From a virus: 64,000 nt of DNA. Below, piece after piece: positions 84 through 55,635 of the stretch. How positions within the stretch are numbered: the stretch's first letter is position 1; every line of letters begins with the position of its first letter. The position numbers and the translations under genes are program-made. Below the pieces are notes generated by a model. It searched no databases. It worked only from the letters and a program-made list of their open reading frames with translations, and was not told the DNA's origin. The stretch lies in UHGV virus genome UHGV-0167591; one strand, 5' to 3'.

Positions 84-2150
84 ATGATCGAAATGCAGAT
101 GTATACCGCGAAGGATGACGGCGAACGTCTGGCAATGATGCAGGTTCAAATGGATAAGGCGAAAGCTGCGAAACGCGCTCGCCAGAAAGAACAGGCTACT
201 ATCGACCTTCAGAACTACATCAAGGCGCAGCACGCAGCTGGTGAGGATGTGGAGGTACTTACCGCTGAATTGGAGCGAAGCAAAGCGGAACTTGAAAAGA
301 CCACCGCCGACGTCGCCAAATTCAAACAGGCGGTAATGGCCAAAGCAGCTGATAACGCAGACTGGAAAGCCCGCTGGGGTAGCGTCCATCACACAGACCG
401 TATGTTGTTAGCACAGTATCGCGCGTCGTTGAAAAGCGCCATTCAGCGCAAGGCTAATATCTCTCAGGCCATCTCCCGCTATGAGAAATTATTGAACCGT
501 ACTCAGAAGGCCGCGACGGATATCAAACGCCTGCGCCCGCTGGTGGAGGATGCAATAAATAAAGGCATTCTGGATGTTGATCCTGATCTGGTTAACCATG
601 CGAATGAGTTCCTTGTTATCGGCGATCGCTCATGGCGTGTAGGCCAATACTATGATTGTGCCGGTGATATCGTTCGCATTAAGTCGCTGGACTTCGACAG
701 CCAGCGCGCAGACGTGGAGATCATCTTTACCTTCAAAGGCACCAAATCGGGTAACTGGGATGTGAAGACGCTGGATAAACAGGTTGATGTAACTCCCGAT
801 GAAGATGCTGTTATGCAGAAAATCAGTGGTGGCGTCTCCATCGCCGGGATTAACGACATCATTTCCTGTGACGATTTCTACCGTTTCCAGCAGCGCGGCA
901 TGATCAAAATCACTGACTCATACGGCGTTCAGACTACAGAGTCAGGCTATAGCATTGATTTTGTTGGTACCTATACGGACCCACTGAAGCATGCGGTTTA
1001 CCCGGATCGCCGTGACGGCGCGCTGAAGTCGTCAATTGCAAAATGGGTGCTTGGTATGATGTCGGAAGGGAATAACCGCCAGATCCGTTCGGCAGAAACA
1101 TTCCTGGTTGAACTGTTTGGCTCCAATTATGGCGATGTAATCGCGTCATACGGAGATACGCTATCCCCTGAAGCAATTCAGGAGAAAATAGCGGATGCGA
1201 TCGCCAGAATGCCGGAAAAAACAAGCCAGGGGGCTACTCGTAACGGGGATTCTGAACTTGAAGTCACCAATGCCATTTTCGGTACCAATGAGTTCCGGGC
1301 GTCAGATTATGAGATCACCACAGCACAGTTTGGCACCATTGGCATTTACAGCAATAAAGCCGAGATCAAGCAGGCAATGGACGCAGCAAGCGCGCGCATC
1401 GCAGCAGAACGGGAAGCCAATCTGAATCATGCAGTCGCCGCACTGACTCAATCGTGGGTAACAGCAATCAGGGAGGCCGCCACCACAGGGAAAATCACAC
1501 CTGCAATTGCGGATGTCGTAAACGACGGCTCTAAATTTATGGATGCCTATCAAATGGATGCGGTGCAGTTGCCATCAGCCTATGGCCAACTCAGCTATCG
1601 CATGACCTACAACCTGGTATCAATGTTTACTGACCTTGCCATCCTTGGGCTGGTGGACCTTAACGAGGTTACGCCGGAATTACTCAGCATGCGCAAGAAT
1701 CATGTTGAGATATTGCAGAGAATTAACACGGTTCTTGCCGGGCGCACCGATGAAGAGAAACAGGCCGACGCTGATCGGATAAACCTGGCCCTAGGCAACA
1801 TCACGGAGGAAGAAATTGCCGCCAGAAACGAGAAACAAGAAGAGTTATCATCAATACAGGGTGATGCCACCAGCATAGCTCAGTCTCTTGGGCTGAATTA
1901 TCGCGTATCCACCGCCGACCTGAAGATGATGTACGCACCAAAATTCGCCGCTGGCGAGGTATTTGGGCTTCAGGAAGCCTCCGGCATGAAAGGGGTTCTT
2001 TTCCGTGCGAAAGACGCAATCAAGGCGAAATTCGGCGCTCGCTGGTTGCCAGCGAAGGCGAAGAACAGCGACTTCCCAGGTAACTGGTGGATTATCGAGA
2101 CAAAACACAACGTGGCGGACGTTCTGGCCGTCATCCAACAATACGCATAA
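84..2150 (+). CDS. Large coiled-coil protein of unknown function (688 aa), upstream of the ulx/lxc pair
   Basis: Complete ORF; in-frame stop at 63-65 precedes it; N-terminal A/K/E/Q-rich coiled coil; no nucleotide-binding or helicase motifs seen. No clear SD, start uncertain. Confidence 0.6.
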   Translation: MIEMQMYTAKDDGERLAMMQVQMDKAKAAKRARQKEQATIDLQNYIKAQHAAGEDVEVLTAELERSKAELEKTTADVAKFKQAVMAKAADNADWKARWGSVHHTDRMLLAQYRASLKSAIQRKANISQAISRYEKLLNRTQKAATDIKRLRPLVEDAINKGILDVDPDLVNHANEFLVIGDRSWRVGQYYDCAGDIVRIKSLDFDSQRADVEIIFTFKGTKSGNWDVKTLDKQVDVTPDEDAVMQKISGGVSIAGINDIISCDDFYRFQQRGMIKITDSYGVQTTESGYSIDFVGTYTDPLKHAVYPDRRDGALKSSIAKWVLGMMSEGNNRQIRSAETFLVELFGSNYGDVIASYGDTLSPEAIQEKIADAIARMPEKTSQGATRNGDSELEVTNAIFGTNEFRASDYEITTAQFGTIGIYSNKAEIKQAMDAASARIAAEREANLNHAVAALTQSWVTAIREAATTGKITPAIADVVNDGSKFMDAYQMDAVQLPSAYGQLSYRMTYNLVSMFTDLAILGLVDLNEVTPELLSMRKNHVEILQRINTVLAGRTDEEKQADADRINLALGNITEEEIAARNEKQEELSSIQGDATSIAQSLGLNYRVSTADLKMMYAPKFAAGEVFGLQEASGMKGVLFRAKDAIKAKFGARWLPAKAKNSDFPGNWWIIETKHNVADVLAVIQQYA

Positions 2151-2183
2151 CAGGAGCGCCCGGTTCGCCGGGCGTCGCATAAT

Positions 2184-2624
2184 ATGGCCACATTATCTGA
2201 TACAATAAAACCGAATAAAACATATCTTGAGGCGGTGCTGCGTACGGCGTTGTTAGGAAAGACAGAAGACGAATACGTTGATTTCTTCCTGTCAGGGCTA
2301 CGCGGGCGATTACTGAAAAATCCCCGCCTGTACCGCAGCTATGGTCCATACTGGCCGGAAATTAAAAAATTATTACTGGAGCGCGGTTATGGTAATTTCG
2401 GTCGTCTCGTTGACCGTGACGTTCGCAAAATTTACCGTTATGACCGTCCGGCGCTGACGCTCATAGCCGCGACGCTCTACAGCCAGGAGCGTTTTGATAA
2501 TGGTCAGATATACTCAGCCTGGCATTTACTGCCAGTGCCTGAAGAGGTTGACGACCAGGACTATGAGTTTGAGTCTTACGATTTGGAAGTTGAAGCCTTG
2601 GCACAGGCTGGAGAGAAAACTTGA
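2184..2624 (+). CDS. Ulx-like protein (gene upstream of lxc), 146 aa
   Basis: ORF immediately upstream of and overlapping the lxc start (TTGA overlap); position matches P1 ulx; sequence identity not verifiable. Confidence 0.55.
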   Translation: MATLSDTIKPNKTYLEAVLRTALLGKTEDEYVDFFLSGLRGRLLKNPRLYRSYGPYWPEIKKLLLERGYGNFGRLVDRDVRKIYRYDRPALTLIAATLYSQERFDNGQIYSAWHLLPVPEEVDDQDYEFESYDLEVEALAQAGEKT

Positions 2625-2869
2625 AAAAGCGATACTACACAGTAAAGCATGGGACGCTACGAGCATTACAAGAGTTTGCTGATAAGCATAACGTTGAGGT
2701 GCGCAGGGAAGGGGGAAGTAAAGCTCTGCGCATGTACCGTCCGGACGGGAAATGGCGTACGGTCGTCGATTTCAAAACTAACAGCGTTCCCCAGGGCGTC
2801 CGCGACCGGGCATTCGAAGAATGGGAGCAGATCATCATAGATAATGCATTGCTCCTGAATGCTGATTGA
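2621..2869 (+). CDS. lxc: Lxc/Bof-like C1 co-repressor, 82 aa, TTG start
   Basis: 82 aa basic protein with TTG start overlapping upstream stop; size, start codon and position match my recollection of P1 bof/lxc. Confidence 0.55.
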   Translation: MKKRYYTVKHGTLRALQEFADKHNVEVRREGGSKALRMYRPDGKWRTVVDFKTNSVPQGVRDRAFEEWEQIIIDNALLLNAD

Positions 2870-2930
2870 TTTCCTGTTAGGTCACTTTATTTTTTAGAGT
2901 GGCCTAAATTACTCTTAATGAGGATGTGAT

Positions 2931-3881
2931 ATGAATGTTTTTATTGATACAAATCTATATTTGGAATTTTACAGGATGGGTAAAGATAAACTAGATGAGC
3001 TGGATAAAGTATTTGCCTTACATCAATATGGTCGTTTAAAACTTTGGTTACCAGAGCTTTTAGTGAATGAGTTCTGGAGGAATCGTTCTAAAGTTCTCTC
3101 TGAAACCATAAAGGAAATAACAAAAGATTATAAGCCCGCGCTTCCCCAGATTTTTAGGCAACATGAAAAGCATTCACAATTTAATGATAAGGTTATAGAA
3201 GCAGGTAGGTTAAAGAATGAAATTATTACAGATATCCAGAAATTGTTTAAAGAGGAGGCTTTGGCTGCCGATATTGTAATTAAAAGGATTTTTGATGCAG
3301 CATCTAAAATAGAGGCTGATGATGAAACAATAGATAAGGGGAAACTTCGATTTGATCTTGGAAACCCGCCTGGCAAAAATAAATCATATGGTGACGCAGT
3401 TAATTGGGAATGTTTGCTAAAAGCGATACCAGACGGTGAGGATATATATATCATAACTGAAGATGGTGATTATAAAAGTGCCTTTATAAAGGATGATATG
3501 AATGAATATTTGAAGCATGAGTGGAAAAAAAAGAAAAATTCAGAACCACATATCTATTCCCGCTTATCAGAGTTTATAGGCGAGCACTTTCCTCAAGCTA
3601 GTAACTTGGTGGAAATGGAAGTTAATCTCACTATAGATGAATTACGACACTCTGGCAGTTTTGCTACAACACATCGAGTTGTAGCAAAATTATTAAAGCT
3701 CACTCACTTTACACAAGAGCAAATCCTAAAAATAATTGATATTTATTTTGAAAATGATCAGGTTGGTTACATCAAAGATGATGATGATGTGAAACTTCTT
3801 GCCAGAAGACTAATATCATTAGGTGACGAGGATAAAGATCCTGAAGGGATGCTGGAGACATTCCGTGTATTTATTGATTAG
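2931..3881 (+). CDS. PIN-like domain protein (predicted nuclease), 316 aa; candidate defence/abortive-infection gene in the P1 res-mod slot
   Basis: N-terminal MNVFIDTN motif typical of PIN first strand; further acidic motifs (LPELLVNEF, GDAVNWE, IITEDGDY); strong SD GAGGA 8 nt upstream; visibly AT-rich versus flanks. Confidence 0.75.
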   Translation: MNVFIDTNLYLEFYRMGKDKLDELDKVFALHQYGRLKLWLPELLVNEFWRNRSKVLSETIKEITKDYKPALPQIFRQHEKHSQFNDKVIEAGRLKNEIITDIQKLFKEEALAADIVIKRIFDAASKIEADDETIDKGKLRFDLGNPPGKNKSYGDAVNWECLLKAIPDGEDIYIITEDGDYKSAFIKDDMNEYLKHEWKKKKNSEPHIYSRLSEFIGEHFPQASNLVEMEVNLTIDELRHSGSFATTHRVVAKLLKLTHFTQEQILKIIDIYFENDQVGYIKDDDDVKLLARRLISLGDEDKDPEGMLETFRVFID

Positions 3882-3887
3882 TATAAT

Positions 3888-3906
3888 GGGCGCATAGTTA
3901 GCGCCC
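3888..3906. terminator. Stem-loop between convergent genes (GGGCGC-atagtta-GCGCCC)
   Basis: Perfect 6 bp GC stem with 7 nt loop between the stops of the 2931-3881 and 3914-4555 genes; no strong U-tract. Confidence 0.35.
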
Positions 3907-3913
3907 AATAAGT

Positions 3914-4555
3914 TTAAAGATAATTATCTTTACCAGTTAATGAACCTTTAGGCACTTTCCGCGCGGCAATTTCATGAGTAGCTTGAATTATATTCACTAG
4001 GGGACTTAGTAACGACGTATCCTGATTGGCCTCAACTTCTCCTGCCATTGACCTGATGTAGTCGGCGCTGGCAACGTTGTTGTATTCCGTCGCAAAGCAA
4101 CATAGTAAGGTCAGAACATGCTCTGTCGTTATTTCGCTCCAGTTGATGTTGAAAAATTCATCGCCTTTTTTATCGTGTTCGGAATCGAAGATGCTTTGGT
4201 GGAGGATGTATTTGCCGGATTCCTTGCGCGGTAACTTGATTGCTTTCTGGCGTTCCAGCTCCTTATAAATCTGCATTGCTTCAATCAGTACCGGTCTGCC
4301 GTTCATGAAGGGATCACGCAACCTTACACGCTGGCCAACTCGACCGGTAATAAAGCTGTTTTCCTCTTCCACCAGCACGATAAAACCCTTTTCCTCTTTT
4401 TCTCGCAATTCGCGCAGCAGCTGGAGTTCCATATCGCGGCGGCGTTCAGGGTAGCTGGTCCGCTCAGCCATTATCAGCTCATTGTTGATCCATGCAGCAG
4501 TCATTGACGCCGGTTTGCCGACGCTCATTGAAACAACGCATATTTTCTTATCCAT
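3914..4555 (-). CDS. Hypothetical protein (213 aa) downstream of ref, in the position of P1 mat
   Basis: ORF on same strand as ref, about 190 bp downstream; ATG at 4555 chosen over upstream GTG at 4582; no recognisable motifs. Confidence 0.55.
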   Translation of the reverse strand: MDKKICVVSMSVGKPASMTAAWINNELIMAERTSYPERRRDMELQLLRELREKEEKGFIVLVEEENSFITGRVGQRVRLRDPFMNGRPVLIEAMQIYKELERQKAIKLPRKESGKYILHQSIFDSEHDKKGDEFFNINWSEITTEHVLTLLCCFATEYNNVASADYIRSMAGEVEANQDTSLLSPLVNIIQATHEIAARKVPKGSLTGKDNYL

Positions 4556-4743
4556 AGCGCCCCTACAAAAAAGAAAAGCCACCAGCGGCGGCTTAGCAAT
4601 ACAACTGAAGGTAGCGCCCGGTACTCAGACTGTGCCGTCCATGGAATATTTGAAAAGGGATCCATCCGTACCGGGCGTGTGATGATTCTGACTGAAGTCA
4701 CTTGTCAGTTGTCAATCATTTATCATTAAAAATAATATATTTA

Positions 4744-5304
4744 TTAGTGCATGATGTTTGCCATCTCATAGGCGTCAGCCAGTAACTCCATCTCTGACTT
4801 GTTCAGCAAGGTGAATTCTTTCTTGCCTCCAACCACACCATCGGCATGAACAGGGACCAGCCATGGGTATTTTTCTCTTACTTCAGCCGGAGCTGCATGC
4901 TGGTGGTGCCATCTACAAAGTGGCAATTGCTTTTTATGACAACCCGGCGCGGTACGACCGGCGATATGGTGCAGAGACACCTCATTAGATATTACTCCAT
5001 GCATATAGCAGGCAATGCAGGGGAGAGCGCCAAGAGCATTGGCGATGCGCCGTTCCTCCGCCGTTGGTGTTCTCCCCTTCAAGCCACGAGATTTTATTTT
5101 TACCGCGATTTTCCGCGTTTTGCTGGCTGGTGGGCGCTCTTTCTGTTTAGCGATACGGCGGTCGAGAGTATCCCGCATTTTCTGATATTGAGATTCTCGC
5201 CAGACCGGATCAGCCAACTTCTCCCGTTGCCGAGCGATCGCTCGTTCTCTGGCTGCCTTCTGCCACTTGCGGCACTGTTCAATTTTTTGTTCGATTGTTT
5301 TCAT
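4744..5304 (-). CDS. ref: Ref recombination enhancement function (HNH endonuclease), 186 aa
   Basis: 186 aa; Cys/His-rich HNH-like C-terminal half (CIACYMHG, HHIAGR, CRWHH); basic N-terminus; C1 operator upstream; matches P1 Ref. Confidence 0.85.
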   Translation of the reverse strand: MKTIEQKIEQCRKWQKAARERAIARQREKLADPVWRESQYQKMRDTLDRRIAKQKERPPASKTRKIAVKIKSRGLKGRTPTAEERRIANALGALPCIACYMHGVISNEVSLHHIAGRTAPGCHKKQLPLCRWHHQHAAPAEVREKYPWLVPVHADGVVGGKKEFTLLNKSEMELLADAYEMANIMH

Positions 5305-5401
5305 ATGGCAAAAAAAGGCGGCCTAATGGCCGCCAATGATGTCAAGGAGTGAAGTAATGGCAACGTCTTCGTAGTTGACAAAAACTGCGGCTCAATTATA
5401 G

Positions 5402-5551: not shown

Positions 5552-5863
5552 TTATTTCATCATGGAAGCTGTTAACGCTTTGGACCTTGCTGAACTGATT
5601 GAAAGGACATTGTTAACCTTACCCAAGAGTTCGCCAAACTCAGACATCACTTTAGCAAAACCGCGCCGTGCTTCTTCCTCGGTGGCATTCATCACGAAAT
5701 GTTCAGCACTACGCATACTTTTGACAGGAAACGCAACGGATATTGAGTCAATATCAGGCATTCTATCGCTCAGCTTTACAGTGACAATGACGGCTGGCGA
5801 CTGAATATTAGTGCTTACAGACAGCACTACATATTTTCCGTCGATGTTGAAATCCTTTCTCAT
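5552..5863 (-). CDS. Hypothetical protein (103 aa) immediately downstream of cre (position of P1 cra)
   Basis: ORF on cre strand 50 bp after cre stop, with operator-like motif in between; function unknown. Confidence 0.45.
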   Translation of the reverse strand: MRKDFNIDGKYVVLSVSTNIQSPAVIVTVKLSDRMPDIDSISVAFPVKSMRSAEHFVMNATEEEARRGFAKVMSEFGELLGKVNNVLSISSARSKALTASMMK

Positions 5864-5913: not shown

Positions 5914-6945
5914 CTAATCGCCATCTTCCAGCAGGCGCACCATTGCCCCTGTTTCACTATCCAGGTTACGGATATAGTTCATGACAATATTTACGTTGGT
6001 CCAGCCACCAGCTTGCATGATCTCCGGTATTGAAACTCCGGCACGGGCCATATCTCGCGCGGCTCCGACACGGGCACTGTGTCCAGACCAGGCCAGGTAT
6101 CTCTGACCAGAGTCATCCTTAGCGCCGTAAATCAATCGATGAGTTGCTTCAAAAATCCCTTCCAGGGCGCGAGTTGATAGCTGGCTGGTGGCAGATGGCG
6201 CGGCAACACCATTTTTTCTGACCCGGCAAAACAGGTAGTTATTCGGATCATCAGCTACACCAGAGACGGAAATCCATCGCTCGACCAGTTTAGTTACCCC
6301 CAGGCTAAGTGCCTTCTCTACACCTGCGGTGCTAACCAGCGTTTTCGTTCTGCCAATAAGGATTAACATTCTCCCACCGTCAGTACGTGAGATATCTTTA
6401 ACCCTGATCCTGGCAATTTCGGCTATACGTAACAGGGTGTTATAAGCAATCCCCAGAAATGCCAGATTACGTATATCCTGGCAGCGATCGCTATTTCCCA
6501 TGAGTGAACGAACCTGGTCGAAATCAGTGCGTTCGAACGCTAGAGCCTGTTTTGCACGTTCACCGGCATCAACGTTTTCTTTTCGGATCCGCCGCATAAC
6601 CAGTGAAACAGCATTGCTGTCACTTGGTCGTGGCAGCCCGGACCGACGATGAAGCATGTTTAGCTGGCCCAAATGTTGCTGGATAGTTTTTACTGCCAGA
6701 CCGCGCGCCTGAAGATATAGAAGATAATCGCGAACATCTTCAGGTTCTGCGGGAAACCATTTCCGGTTATTCAACTTGCACCATGCCGCCCACGACCGGC
6801 AAACGGACAGAAGCATTTTCCAGGTATGCTCAGAAAACGCCTGGCGATCCCTGAACATGTCCATCAGGTTCTTGCGAACCTCATCACTCGTTGCATCGAC
6901 CGGTAATGCAGGCAAATTTTGGTGTACGGTCAGTAAATTGGACAT
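5914..6945 (-). CDS. cre: Cre site-specific tyrosine recombinase, 343 aa
   Basis: Translation begins MSNLLTVHQNLPALPVDATSDEVRKNLMDMFRDRQAFSEHTWKMLLSVCRSWAAWCKLNNRKWFPAEPEDVRDYLLYLQARGLAVKTIQQHLGQLNMLHRRSGLPRPSDSNAVSLVMRRIRKENVDAGERAKQALAFERTDFDQVRSLMENSDRCQDIRNLAFLGIAYNTLLRIAEIARIRVKDISRTDGGRMLIHIGRTKTLVSTAGVEKALSLGVTKLVERWISVSGVADDPNNYLFCRVRKNGVAAPSATSQLSTRALEGIFEATHRLIYGAKDDSGQRYLAWSGHSARVGAARDMARAGVSIPEIMQAGGWTNVNIVMNYIRNLDSETGAMVRLLEDGD. Confidence 0.97.
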   Translation of the reverse strand: MSNLLTVHQNLPALPVDATSDEVRKNLMDMFRDRQAFSEHTWKMLLSVCRSWAAWCKLNNRKWFPAEPEDVRDYLLYLQARGLAVKTIQQHLGQLNMLHRRSGLPRPSDSNAVSLVMRRIRKENVDAGERAKQALAFERTDFDQVRSLMGNSDRCQDIRNLAFLGIAYNTLLRIAEIARIRVKDISRTDGGRMLILIGRTKTLVSTAGVEKALSLGVTKLVERWISVSGVADDPNNYLFCRVRKNGVAAPSATSQLSTRALEGIFEATHRLIYGAKDDSGQRYLAWSGHSARVGAARDMARAGVSIPEIMQAGGWTNVNIVMNYIRNLDSETGAMVRLLEDGD

Positions 6946-6952
6946 TTAACAC

Positions 6953-7174
6953 TCAGATAATGGTTTTAAGTAAAGTGTACAGGATCGGCTCTGCCTTTAC
7001 CTGTTTATGGTTCTCGTCATAGAAACGCCAGCGACCGCGCGTGCGTTCTATTTTCTCTTCACCGCGCGATAATGACAGTTGACAACTATCACGATCAAAC
7101 CCTTTTGCCCGCCAGTAACCACGGTTTTTCTCAAGCTCAATATGAGTGGACACTTTAGCAGCTGAATATCCCAT
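6953..7174 (-). CDS. Small basic ORF (73 aa) between loxP and cre; coding status doubtful
   Basis: ORF only; lies in the cre promoter region about 190 bp from loxP. Confidence 0.2.
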   Translation of the reverse strand: MGYSAAKVSTHIELEKNRGYWRAKGFDRDSCQLSLSRGEEKIERTRGRWRFYDENHKQVKAEPILYTLLKTII

Positions 7175-7363
7175 TTTTCACCTCTGATTGATTGGTGGTG
7201 CTAAGTGCGCTACGCGAAATCTGGAGCACTAACACTGCCAACATTTCGCAGATTTTACGTAGCGCAACCTTGATCAAATGATCAAGTGATCACTATTTGA
7301 CCTGATAAGGTATTGAACTGTATGGATTTACAGGTAAATTGATCATGTTCAATAACCCTTAAA

Positions 7364-7397
7364 ATAACTTCGTATAATGTATGCTATACGAAGTTAT
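7364..7397. other. loxP recombination site (34 bp)
   Basis: Exact ATAACTTCGTATA-ATGTATGC-TATACGAAGTTAT, two 13 bp inverted repeats around 8 bp spacer, about 420 bp upstream of cre. Confidence 0.98.
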
Positions 7398-7440
7398 CAG
7401 GTCAGAAGAGGAGTTTACGTCCAGCTGCGCACAAAAATCA

Positions 7441-7457
7441 AGAATTATTAGAGCAAT
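7441..7457. promoter_or_regulatory. C1 operator (immC region)
   Basis: 15/17 match to operator consensus (reverse orientation). Confidence 0.6.
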
Positions 7458-7514
7458 ACAATAAACCACTTTCTTCCAGCAAAAATCTGGATTGTTTTTC
7501 ATAGTTGTTTGACA

Positions 7515-7531
7515 ATTGCTCTAATAAATTA
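7515..7531. promoter_or_regulatory. C1 operator (immC region)
   Basis: ATTGCTCTAATAAATTA, 16/17 match to consensus ATTGCTCTAATAAATTT. Confidence 0.7.
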
Positions 7532-7601
7532 TAGTTTTGCCGCCGTTTCGTAATATGACACCAAGGCCACCTTCAGGTGTTATAGAGCGGCTCAGAGGGA
7601 A

Positions 7602-7706
7602 ATGAGCAAACAGGGAAACCTTATACAAACGGCATTACGGCTATGCATTGCTCATCTTACACACAGCGCAATGTTGTTAGATAACCCCAGCATGGATTAT
7701 GGGTGA
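7602..7706 (+). CDS. Small ORF (34 aa) upstream of coi (imcA/imcB-like position)
   Basis: ATG preceded by AGAGGGA SD; ends 54 bp before coi start; below the ORF-track size cutoff. Confidence 0.3.
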   Translation: MSKQGNLIQTALRLCIAHLTHSAMLLDNPSMDYG

Positions 7707-7759
7707 AACAGTAGGTCAGAGCTTCAGGCTCTGTGTTGTCAATACAGTGAGGCATAATT

Positions 7760-7969
7760 ATGGCTTTCATTCCACCAACCATCGACGACGTTAGACATTG
7801 CTCTAACGCTTTATCTGTAGACCCCGCCGAAACCGACGCTGCTCGCGCCATTGCTGAACACTACTCAAAGATATCCAATCAGGAGTACCGCATCACCCAA
7901 GACGACCTTGATGATCTCACTGACACAATCGAATATCTCATGGCCACTAACCAGCCAGACTCACAATAA
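7760..7969 (+). CDS. coi: Coi, C1 inactivator, 69 aa
   Basis: 69 aa acidic protein immediately upstream of c1; matches P1 Coi in size and position; SD GTGAGG. Confidence 0.85.
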   Translation: MAFIPPTIDDVRHCSNALSVDPAETDAARAIAEHYSKISNQEYRITQDDLDDLTDTIEYLMATNQPDSQ

Positions 7970-8079
7970 ATGCACTAATAAATCTATTATTTTTGCTGGA
8001 TCCTTCTATAATGGTGGTCAACAACTCTCAGTGTTATCCGCTGTGAGTTGTTGGCCATGTCAATTCTGGAGGAGGATCA

Positions 8080-53452: not shown

Positions 53453-53917
53453 TTATGTCCCAAGTGCTCTTTTTCTGCTTTGTTTGAGTGTTCTGATTTT
53501 ACTGTCATAGGTTACAACATAGGCTGTTTTGAGAAGCCAATAGTCTCTACGTGCGGATAGCACAACAACGTAGTTTTCACACTCATTCCAGATTACCCAC
53601 TCTTCAGTTGGTCCTCGTCTTTCAGACCAACATGATATATCGCAATGGTTATAATTCCTTATCATATGCGCGATCCAGCGAATTCGCTTGCACCGTTCAA
53701 GATCGGGTATACGTTCTTCTTCTATTTTTCCCTCTGATACTAAATGCCAAAATCCGAATTCTTTCCCATCATATTCCGGTGAATAACGTAATCGAACAGG
53801 GAGACCCTTAAACGTTATATTAGAGATTAAAATATCTTCTCTAACAACATCATATACATCGTCTATATACTCTTGCCAACTTCCATTGAAGTACAATAAA
53901 TCTGGCATTTGAAGCAT
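53453..53917 (-). CDS. Hypothetical protein, 154 aa; second gene of an AT-rich coupled pair (rlfB position)
   Basis: ATG 53917 preceded by GGAGG (7 nt spacing); start overlaps the upstream stop (TGATG). Confidence 0.6.
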   Translation of the reverse strand: MLQMPDLLYFNGSWQEYIDDVYDVVREDILISNITFKGLPVRLRYSPEYDGKEFGFWHLVSEGKIEEERIPDLERCKRIRWIAHMIRNYNHCDISCWSERRGPTEEWVIWNECENYVVVLSARRDYWLLKTAYVVTYDSKIRTLKQSRKRALGT

Positions 53918-54621
53918 CAACGAGCCTCCCACACGAAAATATTAAATTTACTTTCTGTTGGAAGAGTGCTTTTTAGTAACTCCCTGTTTGTATGTGATTT
54001 TATCCTATTTATGACTTGGATTTTTCCCGCGTTGCTATTCATTCCTCGATGAACGTAGCCTAACGCACCAATGAAAAGATCCGTTAGCTGCAATTGTTGC
54101 ACTTCATGAGATCGTATATGTTGAATTCTGTTTATCGACTCATGATTGTAATCATAGCGATCATTGTGAAGAACCCCTCTTAATTTCTCAATTTTTTCAA
54201 TACCTAAAGTATCTTTTATATCTAGGTAGATATTGTATGTGTTGTTACTTTCTATTATGTTTTTTAAGACATAAAAAAACATCTTATAATAGAAAGTATT
54301 ATGATCTTGATGGAATCGAGCATGGTCCAGTTGCTCTTTATCAGGAACAACAACACCTCTAAAGCGCAATGCTGGGTTGCTGAAGAAGTAATCTACGACA
54401 TCTAAGTAAAATTCAACTTTGGACGCAGATACTTTAGTCCACTTGATTTCGAAATCAGGTTTTAGATTGTGTTTTAATTTTAATTCCTTGATATCTCTAG
54501 CAATTTTTTTTGTGATAGTGCCAGGGCACCAAAGCGCACCCAATACCATGACTTTATTATGATCATTTAGTAGGTGACAGGATTCATCGCAGAATACATT
54601 AAATGTTCTTCGGTTCAACAT
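53917..54621 (-). CDS. Hypothetical protein with possible DUF3800-like N-terminus, 234 aa (rlfA position)
   Basis: N-terminal FNVFCDESCH motif; AT-rich; immediately downstream of repL on the same strand. Confidence 0.6.
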   Translation of the reverse strand: MLNRRTFNVFCDESCHLLNDHNKVMVLGALWCPGTITKKIARDIKELKLKHNLKPDFEIKWTKVSASKVEFYLDVVDYFFSNPALRFRGVVVPDKEQLDHARFHQDHNTFYYKMFFYVLKNIIESNNTYNIYLDIKDTLGIEKIEKLRGVLHNDRYDYNHESINRIQHIRSHEVQQLQLTDLFIGALGYVHRGMNSNAGKIQVINRIKSHTNRELLKSTLPTESKFNIFVWEAR

Positions 54622-54789: not shown

Positions 54790-55635
54790 TTAACCTCTGA
54801 ATCCTGCCGGTATACCCCATTGTTCGTTATCTTTATTTTTGGCTAAAACCGCATTAAGAGCTTCGTTTACCGTCATGCAATGCGGCAGATTATCGAAGTT
54901 TGATATCCCACCAATATCAGGAGAACGCTTGTTCTTCAGGTAAGCATATTTCCGCGCTGCCGCCTCTACTTTCTGCTTGAACTCATGTTTTTGAGCGCGT
55001 TTTTTGGATAACCGCAGATTGTCAGCCTTTGCTTTTGCCTCAGCGATCCATGAAGTCAATTTTTTGAGTCTGGTCGTTCCGGCACCGCCGGAAACTGATC
55101 TTTTTGTTTTTTTAACTTGTGACTTCTTATTCTTTATTGCCACGTCATCCTGACAGGGGGAGGGGGTATCATTTTGACATGGGGGTGTGGATAAAAAATC
55201 AAATAAAGCCAATGTCTTAGCGAGAACAGCTTTAACCTTGGTTGCGGCTGAAGAGATCTTTAATTTGCTTTCAGTCAGCGCGTTTTTAGCTTGTTGTGCG
55301 AAGGCCAAAAAGGATGGTGTAAACCGGTACAGGTTAGCGCGGCGTTCACGGTGATCGCCGATAACAATCTCTACAGACAGGATTCCTTTGTTTACAGCTT
55401 CACGGAATGCACGAACGACGGTTGATTGACTATAACCAGTTTCTGCCGCGATCAGGCGGTGAGGCTTGTGAATGAAGTATTCACTGGTTGTAGCCGCGAG
55501 ATTTGCACATTGCGACAGGATATACCCGGCGCTACGGGATAGACCGGAGTGTGTTACAAAGCAGGCCAATTCATAGCCAGAAAAAGTAAAATCGCTCATC
55601 GTTATACAGCTCAGGAAAGTGACTTTAGCCAGCAT
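54790..55635 (-). CDS. repL: RepL lytic replication initiator, 281 aa
   Basis: 281 aa, begins MLAKVTFLSCITMSDFTFSGYELACFVTHSGLSRSAGYILSQC; directly downstream of kilA as in P1. Confidence 0.88.
   Translation of the reverse strand: MLAKVTFLSCITMSDFTFSGYELACFVTHSGLSRSAGYILSQCANLAATTSEYFIHKPHRLIAAETGYSQSTVVRAFREAVNKGILSVEIVIGDHRERRANLYRFTPSFLAFAQQAKNALTESKLKISSAATKVKAVLAKTLALFDFLSTPPCQNDTPSPCQDDVAIKNKKSQVKKTKRSVSGGAGTTRLKKLTSWIAEAKAKADNLRLSKKRAQKHEFKQKVEAAARKYAYLKNKRSPDIGGISNFDNLPHCMTVNEALNAVLAKNKDNEQWGIPAGFRG

Follow-up and report, generated by a model that had tools for sequence, protein, structure and literature searches.

A viral genome of 64,000 nt, UHGV-0167591 (the window in what follows; all coordinates are positions in this whole stretch), carries a single cargo gene at the site where phage P1 holds its res and mod genes, between lxc and mat. 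By its sequence, the window is a P1-type phage-plasmid (genus Punavirus), presented in reverse of the P1 map. The cargo gene encodes a 316-amino-acid (aa) protein of the PIN_12/DUF4935 family and, arguing by analogy, we think it probable that this protein is a single-gene sensor-nuclease for anti-phage defense, of the type in which a toxin and a sensor are fused. We favor a defense role because the cargo of this slot is mainly defense genes, the PIN site appears intact, there is no partner gene, the helical domain of the protein is shared, and selection on the gene is strong. The hotspot itself is already known. The new part is modest but concrete: an uncharacterized PIN_12/DUF4935 protein, a putative sensor-nuclease, in a defense-exchange slot.

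The lxc–mat slot and its cassette

The slot and its edges contain the following features.

2621–2869, + strand: lxc (modulator of C1), which anchors the hotspot on the left and is 96–99.6% identical to lxc of nine P1-type elements
2870 to about 4040: variable cassette segment; the right edge is approximate, about 125–160 nt into the 3′ end of mat
2877–2907, + strand: hairpin or palindrome with a 13-bp stem directly 3′ of lxc, from a scan for terminator-like structures
2931–3881, + strand: cargo gene, 316-aa PIN_12/DUF4935 protein
2931–3485, + strand: predicted PIN nuclease domain at the N-terminus, spanning aa 1 to about 185 and including a long helical insert at aa 42–123
3486–3878, + strand: C-terminal all-helical domain, aa 186–316
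3887–3907: GC hairpin between the stop codons of the cargo gene and mat
3914–4555, − strand: mat (maturation control), 213 aa, a backbone gene assigned from PHROG 1837 and synteny
3914–4040, − strand: mosaic 3′ end of mat, the last 45 codons or so, defined by allele classes
4560–4563, − strand: G4 run (C4 on the + strand), shortly before the mat ATG

Homology to nine P1-type elements ends exactly at the lxc stop codon and returns, for P1 and eight other elements, at about 4040–4070, inside mat. Sliding identity to nine P1-type loci is 0.07–0.8 up to about 4040 and 0.8–1.0 beyond it. The locus thus has the lxc and mat flanks, the breaks in homology at those flanks and, in relatives, the alternative cargo by which the lxc–mat hotspot is recognized. 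Between the edges lie about 1.0–1.2 kb of low-GC DNA with one gene and a hairpin at each side. GC content is 0.33–0.36 over 2850–3900 compared with about 0.50 in the flanks, and 0.346 for 2870–3913 compared with 0.477 for the whole window; the lowest-GC 1-kb block of the 64-kb window is 3001–4000. This low GC agrees with a foreign origin.

A preliminary description of this DNA had proposed a remodeled P1 res/mod locus between lxc and ref, with a PIN-like gene on the plus strand converging on a second gene around a hairpin. Much of this is borne out. The open reading frames (ORFs) and Pfam show two convergent genes and no res/mod between lxc and ref, the plus-strand protein matches PIN_12 above the Pfam cut-off, the hairpin stands out from shuffled sequences, and the lxc and mat flanks match P1 while the content of the slot differs. 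The synteny comparison and the composition profile that the description had suggested were both run, and they yielded the edges (the lxc stop and about 4040) and the low-GC cassette given above. The extent of the hotspot had to be redrawn: it is lxc–mat rather than lxc–ref, its boundary on the right falls within the mat 3′ end, and of the roughly 1.7-kb interval said to be remodeled, 2870 to about 4040 is variable while about 4040–4600 is conserved P1 backbone (mat).

In the lxc–ref interval, the ORF list and Pfam gave no methylase, helicase or transposase domain, and neither the Mod methyltransferase nor the Res helicase-nuclease of a type III restriction-modification (R-M) system (EcoP1I) is present there. 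The only Pfam matches among the interval proteins were PIN_12 and PIN_8, both in the 316-aa protein; the 213-aa protein had none. An IS1 end motif was not found in the window, a result of little weight. The lack of IS1, which had been read as a sign of remodeling, is uninformative in any case, since isaA-insB-insA-isaB, the genes of IS1, make up a variable region of their own, region 2 (PMC9603915).

The lxc–mat interval of the window is the published res-mod region, which has been described as the low-GC variable region 1 of P1-like plasmids (PMC9603915), and it holds different cargo in different P1-type elements. We sampled cargo types from 12 elements; joined flank matches in plasmids require cargo shorter than about 1.3 kb. 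P1 has EcoP1I res/mod in a slot of 6.3 kb (the P1 reference has IS5 in mod and is the mod749::IS5 mutant). SJ46 has a RelA/SpoT gene that matches PADLOC PDC-S33 over its full length (E = 7e-87), and we take this gene to be CapRel(SJ46), a validated fused toxin-antitoxin defense (PMC9712102). Two plasmids have SIR2 proteins matching PDC-S25/ThsA, one has a JukA-like gene together with a helix-turn-helix (HTH) gene and others, one has a DUF2971 protein matching PDC-S31, many have a GNAT gene, three elements have an HTH gene with a 200–230-aa gene, and RCS47 has no cargo. Most of the sampled cargo is either validated (type III R-M, CapRel) or covered by PADLOC models or candidates (SIR2, JukA-like, DUF2971). 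The P1 res-mod slot acts as a defense-gene exchange site and is a compact sampler of single-gene defense candidates. A 2025 DefenseFinder survey of P1-like elements reported type III R-M, CapRel, dGTPase and PrrC and mentioned no PIN gene.

One further record deserves mention. In OP279344.1, which is named "P1 isolate del res del mod", the slot (1471–3187 of that record) is occupied by two genes, 702 and 690 nt long, with the same gene arrangement and mat 3′ allele as the natural elements Ro157c2YLVW and pTB211. Its slot looks like an alternative natural cassette and not a simple deletion.

To the right of the cassette, the minus-strand ORF at 3914–4582 encodes 222 aa from a GTG or 213 aa from the ATG at 4555, in the same orientation as ref, and we assign it to P1 mat. 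The 213-aa protein matches PHROG 1837 across the full 212-position profile (E = 2.9e-110), and the records of JL22, RCS47, SJ46 and P1 name the gene mat or maturation control protein. From about 4040 on, the DNA is 94–100% identical to P1, JL22, SJ46, RCS47 and five further P1-type elements. Compared with P1, identity is 94.7% for mat over 3985–4700 (blastn) and 97.3% over 3985–5400 (megablast); for the part of mat from about 4040 on, it is about 97% at the DNA level. In all ten P1-type elements compared, mat adjoins ref or the expected position of ref, whatever the cargo. At the empty site of RCS47, 40 bp separate the stop codons of lxc and mat, and mat is still there.

By their C-terminal sequences, the Mat proteins can be sorted into about four allele classes, which broadly follow the cargo. 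The window groups with JL22; P1 with the plasmid carrying the JukA-like gene; SJ46 with RCS47 and a SIR2 plasmid; and the three elements with an HTH gene and a 200–230-aa gene with one another. Because the mat 3′ allele tracks the cargo, we place the recombination junction in the mat 3′ end. Together with the breaks in homology at the lxc stop codon and in the mat 3′ end, this indicates that cassettes are swapped by recombination, with lxc and the body of mat as the homology arms.

Each cargo type carries its own hairpins at both edges of the slot, and the GC hairpin is a generic cassette edge element. The hairpin at 3887–3907 (UGGGCGC, a 7-nt loop and GCGCCCA, giving a 7-bp stem) has a folding energy of −13.7 kcal/mol for the + strand (z = −3.3 relative to dinucleotide shuffles) and of −14.4 kcal/mol for the − strand (z = −5.3). 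It does not have the form of an intrinsic terminator, since neither strand has a U-tract, and it was not called by the scan for terminators. JL22 has the same hairpin, and P1, SJ46, RCS47 and others have different hairpins at the same place. It is likely a weak two-way terminator or insulator that arrives with the cassette. The hairpin at 2877–2907 is kept in the 91%-identical JL22 allele (the fold of 2870–2933 has an energy of −21.4 kcal/mol) and could serve lxc as its terminator or the cargo gene as a leader or operator. The cargo gene has a ribosome-binding site, GAGGA, about 7 nt upstream of its start, and read-through into it from the lxc promoters, across the 2877–2907 hairpin, is plausible.

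The two domains of the cargo protein

The 316-aa protein matches Pfam PIN_12/DUF4935 (PF16289) with E = 1.9e-16 and 61.4 bits against a cut-off of 32, over profile positions 1–172 of 172, and the PIN_8 profile is also above its cut-off. In an AlphaFold2 model with a confidence score (pLDDT) of 91, the N-terminal domain is predicted to take the VapC-like PIN fold, and four to five acidic residues of this fold are conserved. Foldseek comparison with the PDB returned only weak VapC and solenoid matches, and sequence searches of the PDB with the protein and two profiles returned nothing significant. Residues D6, N8, E47, D114, R140, P146–K149, G154, D155, W159, D178 and D180 are invariant among 47 aligned homologs; they comprise the PIN acidic residues and a GNPPGK...GDxxNWE motif. 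As judged from this alignment, the PIN active site is intact and conserved, and we predict that the protein has nuclease activity.

Of the 701 PLSDB plasmids with matches to the flanks, 23 carry the gene; among 5426 complete E. coli genomes it occurs in 30, in every case on plasmids of 90–108 kb. The allele of the window is at least 99% identical in plasmids of O157:H7, O111:H8 and other strains. Two P1-borne alleles, those of the window and JL22, share about 91% DNA identity, with a synonymous divergence (dS) of 0.43 and a ratio of nonsynonymous to synonymous divergence (dN/dS) of 0.07, which indicates strong purifying selection on the PIN gene. Homologs at 34–76% identity come from Pantoea, Klebsiella, Serratia, Aeromonas, Vibrio and Flavobacteriia, as well as from many metagenomes; each is about 315–335 aa long and has the same two Pfam matches. 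No VapB-type antitoxin gene adjoins the PIN gene in the window: the 61 bp between the lxc stop and its start codon are filled by the hairpin, and downstream lies the convergent mat. The protein also differs from VapC toxins in its length (316 aa compared with about 135 aa), its long helical insert and its fused C-terminal domain.

The C-terminal domain has counterparts among candidate defense proteins. PADLOC PDC-S34 matches it in all 47 members, at aa 227–298, with a best E of 1.6e-16 (2.5e-17 for isolated C-terminal domains), and here the homology is clear. It does not extend over the full 384 positions of the PDC-S34 profile; in the 57 proteins scanned, only positions from about 254 to 381 were matched, and the N-terminal 250 or so positions had no counterpart in any of them. 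The N-terminus of PDC-S34 is either a different effector or a very divergent PIN domain. A profile search with the C-terminal domain gave 1375 clusters at E ≤ 0.001 among 1.84 billion representatives, and all of the 150 matches listed of these 1375 clusters had the same PIN architecture or fragments of it. In tblastn against plasmids, the 23 P1-type copies were the only matches to the C-terminal domain.

The PIN domain is found with a different C-terminus as well. ORF18 of Ralstonia phage RSA1 shares both the PIN subtype and its motifs (25% identity over aa 3–201, E = 3e-12) in a phage-borne gene that, like ours, is reverse-oriented among backbone genes. Its C-terminus is unrelated and has no PDC-S34 match. 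With the C-terminal domain lying behind another N-terminus in PDC-S34 and the PIN domain preceding another C-terminus in RSA1, module shuffling is indicated. Shuffling of effector and sensor modules is typical of defense proteins, and the pattern fits one effector with interchangeable sensors. In RSA1, a P2-like phage, the PIN gene (2468–3409 of the RSA1 locus) is a reverse-oriented insert between tail and baseplate genes and is likely an accessory insert in a different family of phages.

Apart from PDC-S34, PD-T7-3 alone among the PADLOC families recurs for the C-terminal domain; each of the remaining families matches at most one protein. Positions 293–399 of its profile give a weak match to aa 178–281 (E = 7e-5). 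PD-T7-3 has been renamed DARNA and is a HEPN tRNase whose helical C-terminal domain binds single-stranded DNA (ssDNA) presented by the phage's ssDNA-binding protein (SSB), with F368, D372, W406 and N408 as the ssDNA-reading residues (bioRxiv 10.64898/2026.02.22.705581). By approximate numbering, profile positions 293–399 fall in the base-reading part of DARNA. Both DARNA and the cargo protein are single proteins with an N-terminal RNase (predicted in our case) and a helical C-terminal domain, both of the HEAT-like class. They differ in the effector, which is HEPN (RX4H) in DARNA and PIN here, and the N-terminus of the cargo protein does not qualify as HEPN. A domain link to DARNA is possible on these faint matches and offers a lead. 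The fuller version of this idea strikes us as rather doubtful: that the cargo protein is the PIN-effector counterpart of DARNA, with a portable C-terminal sensor carried on PIN, on the PDC-S34 N-terminus and on HEPN, which would recognize ssDNA via the phage SSB, or a similar cue, and would switch on tRNA or rRNA cleavage by the PIN domain. The supplement of Vassallo et al. gives accession RCP48690.1 only, and DUF4935 is not mentioned there. A preprint on a NAP-sensor (10.64898/2026.04.06.716658) was also consulted and is of no relevance here.

To see the company that the PIN gene keeps elsewhere, ten non-P1 contexts of its homologs were compared. There is no neighbor gene common to the ten, and no mat-like neighbor in any. 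Each homolog has its own terminator hairpin, with T-runs. The homologs mostly lie beside known defense genes. One is in an integrative island with a type I R-M system, Mrr, a McrA-like HNH protein and KlcA; one is at the end of a Pantoea prophage, beside the integrase; and one, in Serratia, immediately adjoins the Hachiman genes HamA and helicase. In a metagenome-assembled genome, the start of the homolog (7001–7990 of that locus) overlaps the stop of an MmeI-type R-M fusion gene by 4 nt, which suggests that the two are co-transcribed. Others lie in islands with AbiGi, a Zeta toxin and DUF3800; with EndoU, YopA and DUF3800; with large DUF4011 helicases; or with AEP-helicase, FRG, RadC and N4/N6 methylase genes. 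The remaining two, in Aeromonas and Labilibaculum, were uninformative.

Proposed function and competing explanations

In the mechanism that we propose, the C-terminal domain would hold the PIN nuclease inactive in the lysogen until a cue of infection arrives. The cue would release the PIN domain to cut RNA, most likely tRNA or rRNA. VapC enzymes, whose fold the domain is predicted to share, cut tRNA or rRNA. Cleavage would then abort the infection, stopping the infected cell and the phage with it.

The closest comparison is with CapRel(SJ46), which occupies the same lxc–mat slot as a single gene of about 1.1 kb and corresponds to a PADLOC single-gene candidate (PDC-S33). CapRel has an N-terminal toxic enzyme and a C-terminal regulatory or sensor domain (PMC9712102), the role that we propose for the C-terminal domain here. 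The two proteins have no sequence similarity. The CapRel effector is a RelA/SpoT-type tRNA pyrophosphokinase and not a PIN domain, its gene lies in the opposite orientation in the slot, and it has been validated experimentally, whereas the PIN gene is a candidate. EcoP1I res-mod of P1 shares the position, the left boundary at the lxc stop codon and the character of low-GC accessory cargo, but is a 6.3-kb two-gene type III R-M system, compared with a nuclease gene of about 1 kb without a methylase in the window.

Several observations weigh against a defense role. The case for it is one of association (contexts and slot content), and a search for papers on PDC-S34, PIN_12 or PF16289 in defense turned up the 2017 PIN classification alone and no experiment on a member of the family. 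PDC-S34 is itself a computational candidate, and the match to it is limited to the last 70–120 of 384 profile positions. The PD-T7-3 match appears in a single one of the 47 full-length members and in 3 of the 21 C-terminal domains taken alone (best E there 6.6e-4), and the C-terminal fold is a generic helical solenoid. Not all cargo of the slot is evident defense, since neither GNAT nor the pair of an HTH gene and a 200–230-aa gene has a PADLOC match. The Aeromonas homolog lies among metabolic genes. Finally, there is no convincing promoter upstream of the PIN gene in the window, the best candidate matching at 8 of 12 positions.

How well do other explanations account for the same gene? Plasmid addiction, in which a fused toxin-antitoxin would kill cells that lose the P1-type plasmid and so stabilize the prophage, draws on the VapC-like fold, on the nature of the element as a low-copy plasmid prophage and on the existence of fused toxin-antitoxin designs such as CapRel. 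With no separate antitoxin gene, any antitoxin part would have to sit in the same protein, and here the explanation meets a difficulty: killing after plasmid loss normally needs an unstable antitoxin, and one stable polypeptide has no obvious route to it. The PIN gene is also found in only about 3% of P1-type plasmids, its homologs are mostly chromosomal and beside R-M or Hachiman genes, and the P1 family already has phd-doc. We regard addiction as unlikely. The phd-doc genes are mentioned in PMC9603915. We also see only a small chance that the nuclease serves the lytic growth or entry of the phage itself, for example by degrading host RNA or by counter-defense in the manner of the neighboring anti-restriction genes darB and ulx. 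The gene does lie directly 3′ of darB-ulx-lxc in the same orientation, and having no convincing promoter of its own it may be expressed by read-through from that operon. A gene serving the phage in this way sits poorly with its presence in few P1-type elements and with a slot that otherwise holds defense genes (R-M, CapRel, SIR2). The homologs, moreover, are in chromosomes from Proteobacteria to Bacteroidota, in defense-type neighborhoods and not in lytic modules.

The remaining two explanations fare worse. An inert passenger, that is, a decaying or non-functional foreign gene filling the slot, would suit the low GC, the foreign character and the want of a clear promoter or known function; we consider it very improbable because the frame is intact and full length, the catalytic and motif residues are all conserved, and dN/dS is 0.07 over a dS of 0.43 between the P1-borne alleles. 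The preliminary description had left a choice between the 213-aa gene being native mat and its being a partner of the PIN protein. One hairpin is shared by the convergent genes, and the mat 3′ end varies with the type of cargo, as a two-gene system might have it. The variation is explained by the recombination junction at that point, however. The mat gene is conserved beside ref in 10 of 10 elements independent of cargo, with the empty site included, and the co-occurrence of the two proteins, which the description had wished to see compared, fails outside P1, where no PIN homolog has a mat-like neighbor. The native-gene half of the choice stands, and the partner system can be ruled out for practical purposes.

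We return, then, to the PIN protein as a probable defense protein. Its place in the same slot, the strong purifying selection and the defense neighbors of its homologs in distant bacteria make it a good candidate for a new single-gene defense, and with a gene of 951 bp, it is a cheap and easily testable one. The PIN_12/DUF4935 family was described in 2017 as "function unknown" (PMC5499597) and has had no assigned function since; if our proposal is true, the family gains one, and one sensor domain is reused across effector types. The practical relevance is modest, in that the allele on P1-type plasmids of O157:H7 and O111:H8 strains could affect phage susceptibility.

The mat leader and the surrounding backbone

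The start of mat varies among the ten elements in a run of G upstream of its ATG, which is G4 in six (including the window and the inducible phage SJ46) and G5 in four (including P1). Mat of P1 is annotated as 250 aa because G5 opens and fuses an upstream reading frame; in the G4 elements, only a Mat of 213–214 aa is possible. The G4 run leaves a separate 46-aa ORF (4525–4665) overlapping the mat start. The difference may be neutral, a sequencing artifact or a switch. Close by, at 4576–4594 on the − strand, is a strong terminator-like hairpin with an 8-bp stem followed by TTCTTTTTT. It sits between the position of the P1 Pmat/LPmat promoters and the mat ATG at 4555, thus in the mat leader or within the 250-aa reading frame of P1, and it may be an attenuator.

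The backbone genes on the two sides are as follows.

84–2150, + strand: darB (3′ end)
2184–2624, + strand: ulx
4744–5304, − strand: ref (RecA-dependent nuclease), backbone, from Pfam RecA_dep_nuc (E = 2.3e-51) and the P1 annotation
5552–5863, − strand: c8
5914–6945, − strand: cre

A second low-GC island (GC 0.37–0.39) lies at 53453–54621 of the window, on the − strand, and contains PDC-M04, a PADLOC candidate system of two genes. Its component A spans 53917–54621 (E = 6.7e-96) and its component B 53453–53932 (E = 1.5e-51); the pair adjoins a 281-aa ORF at 54790–55635.

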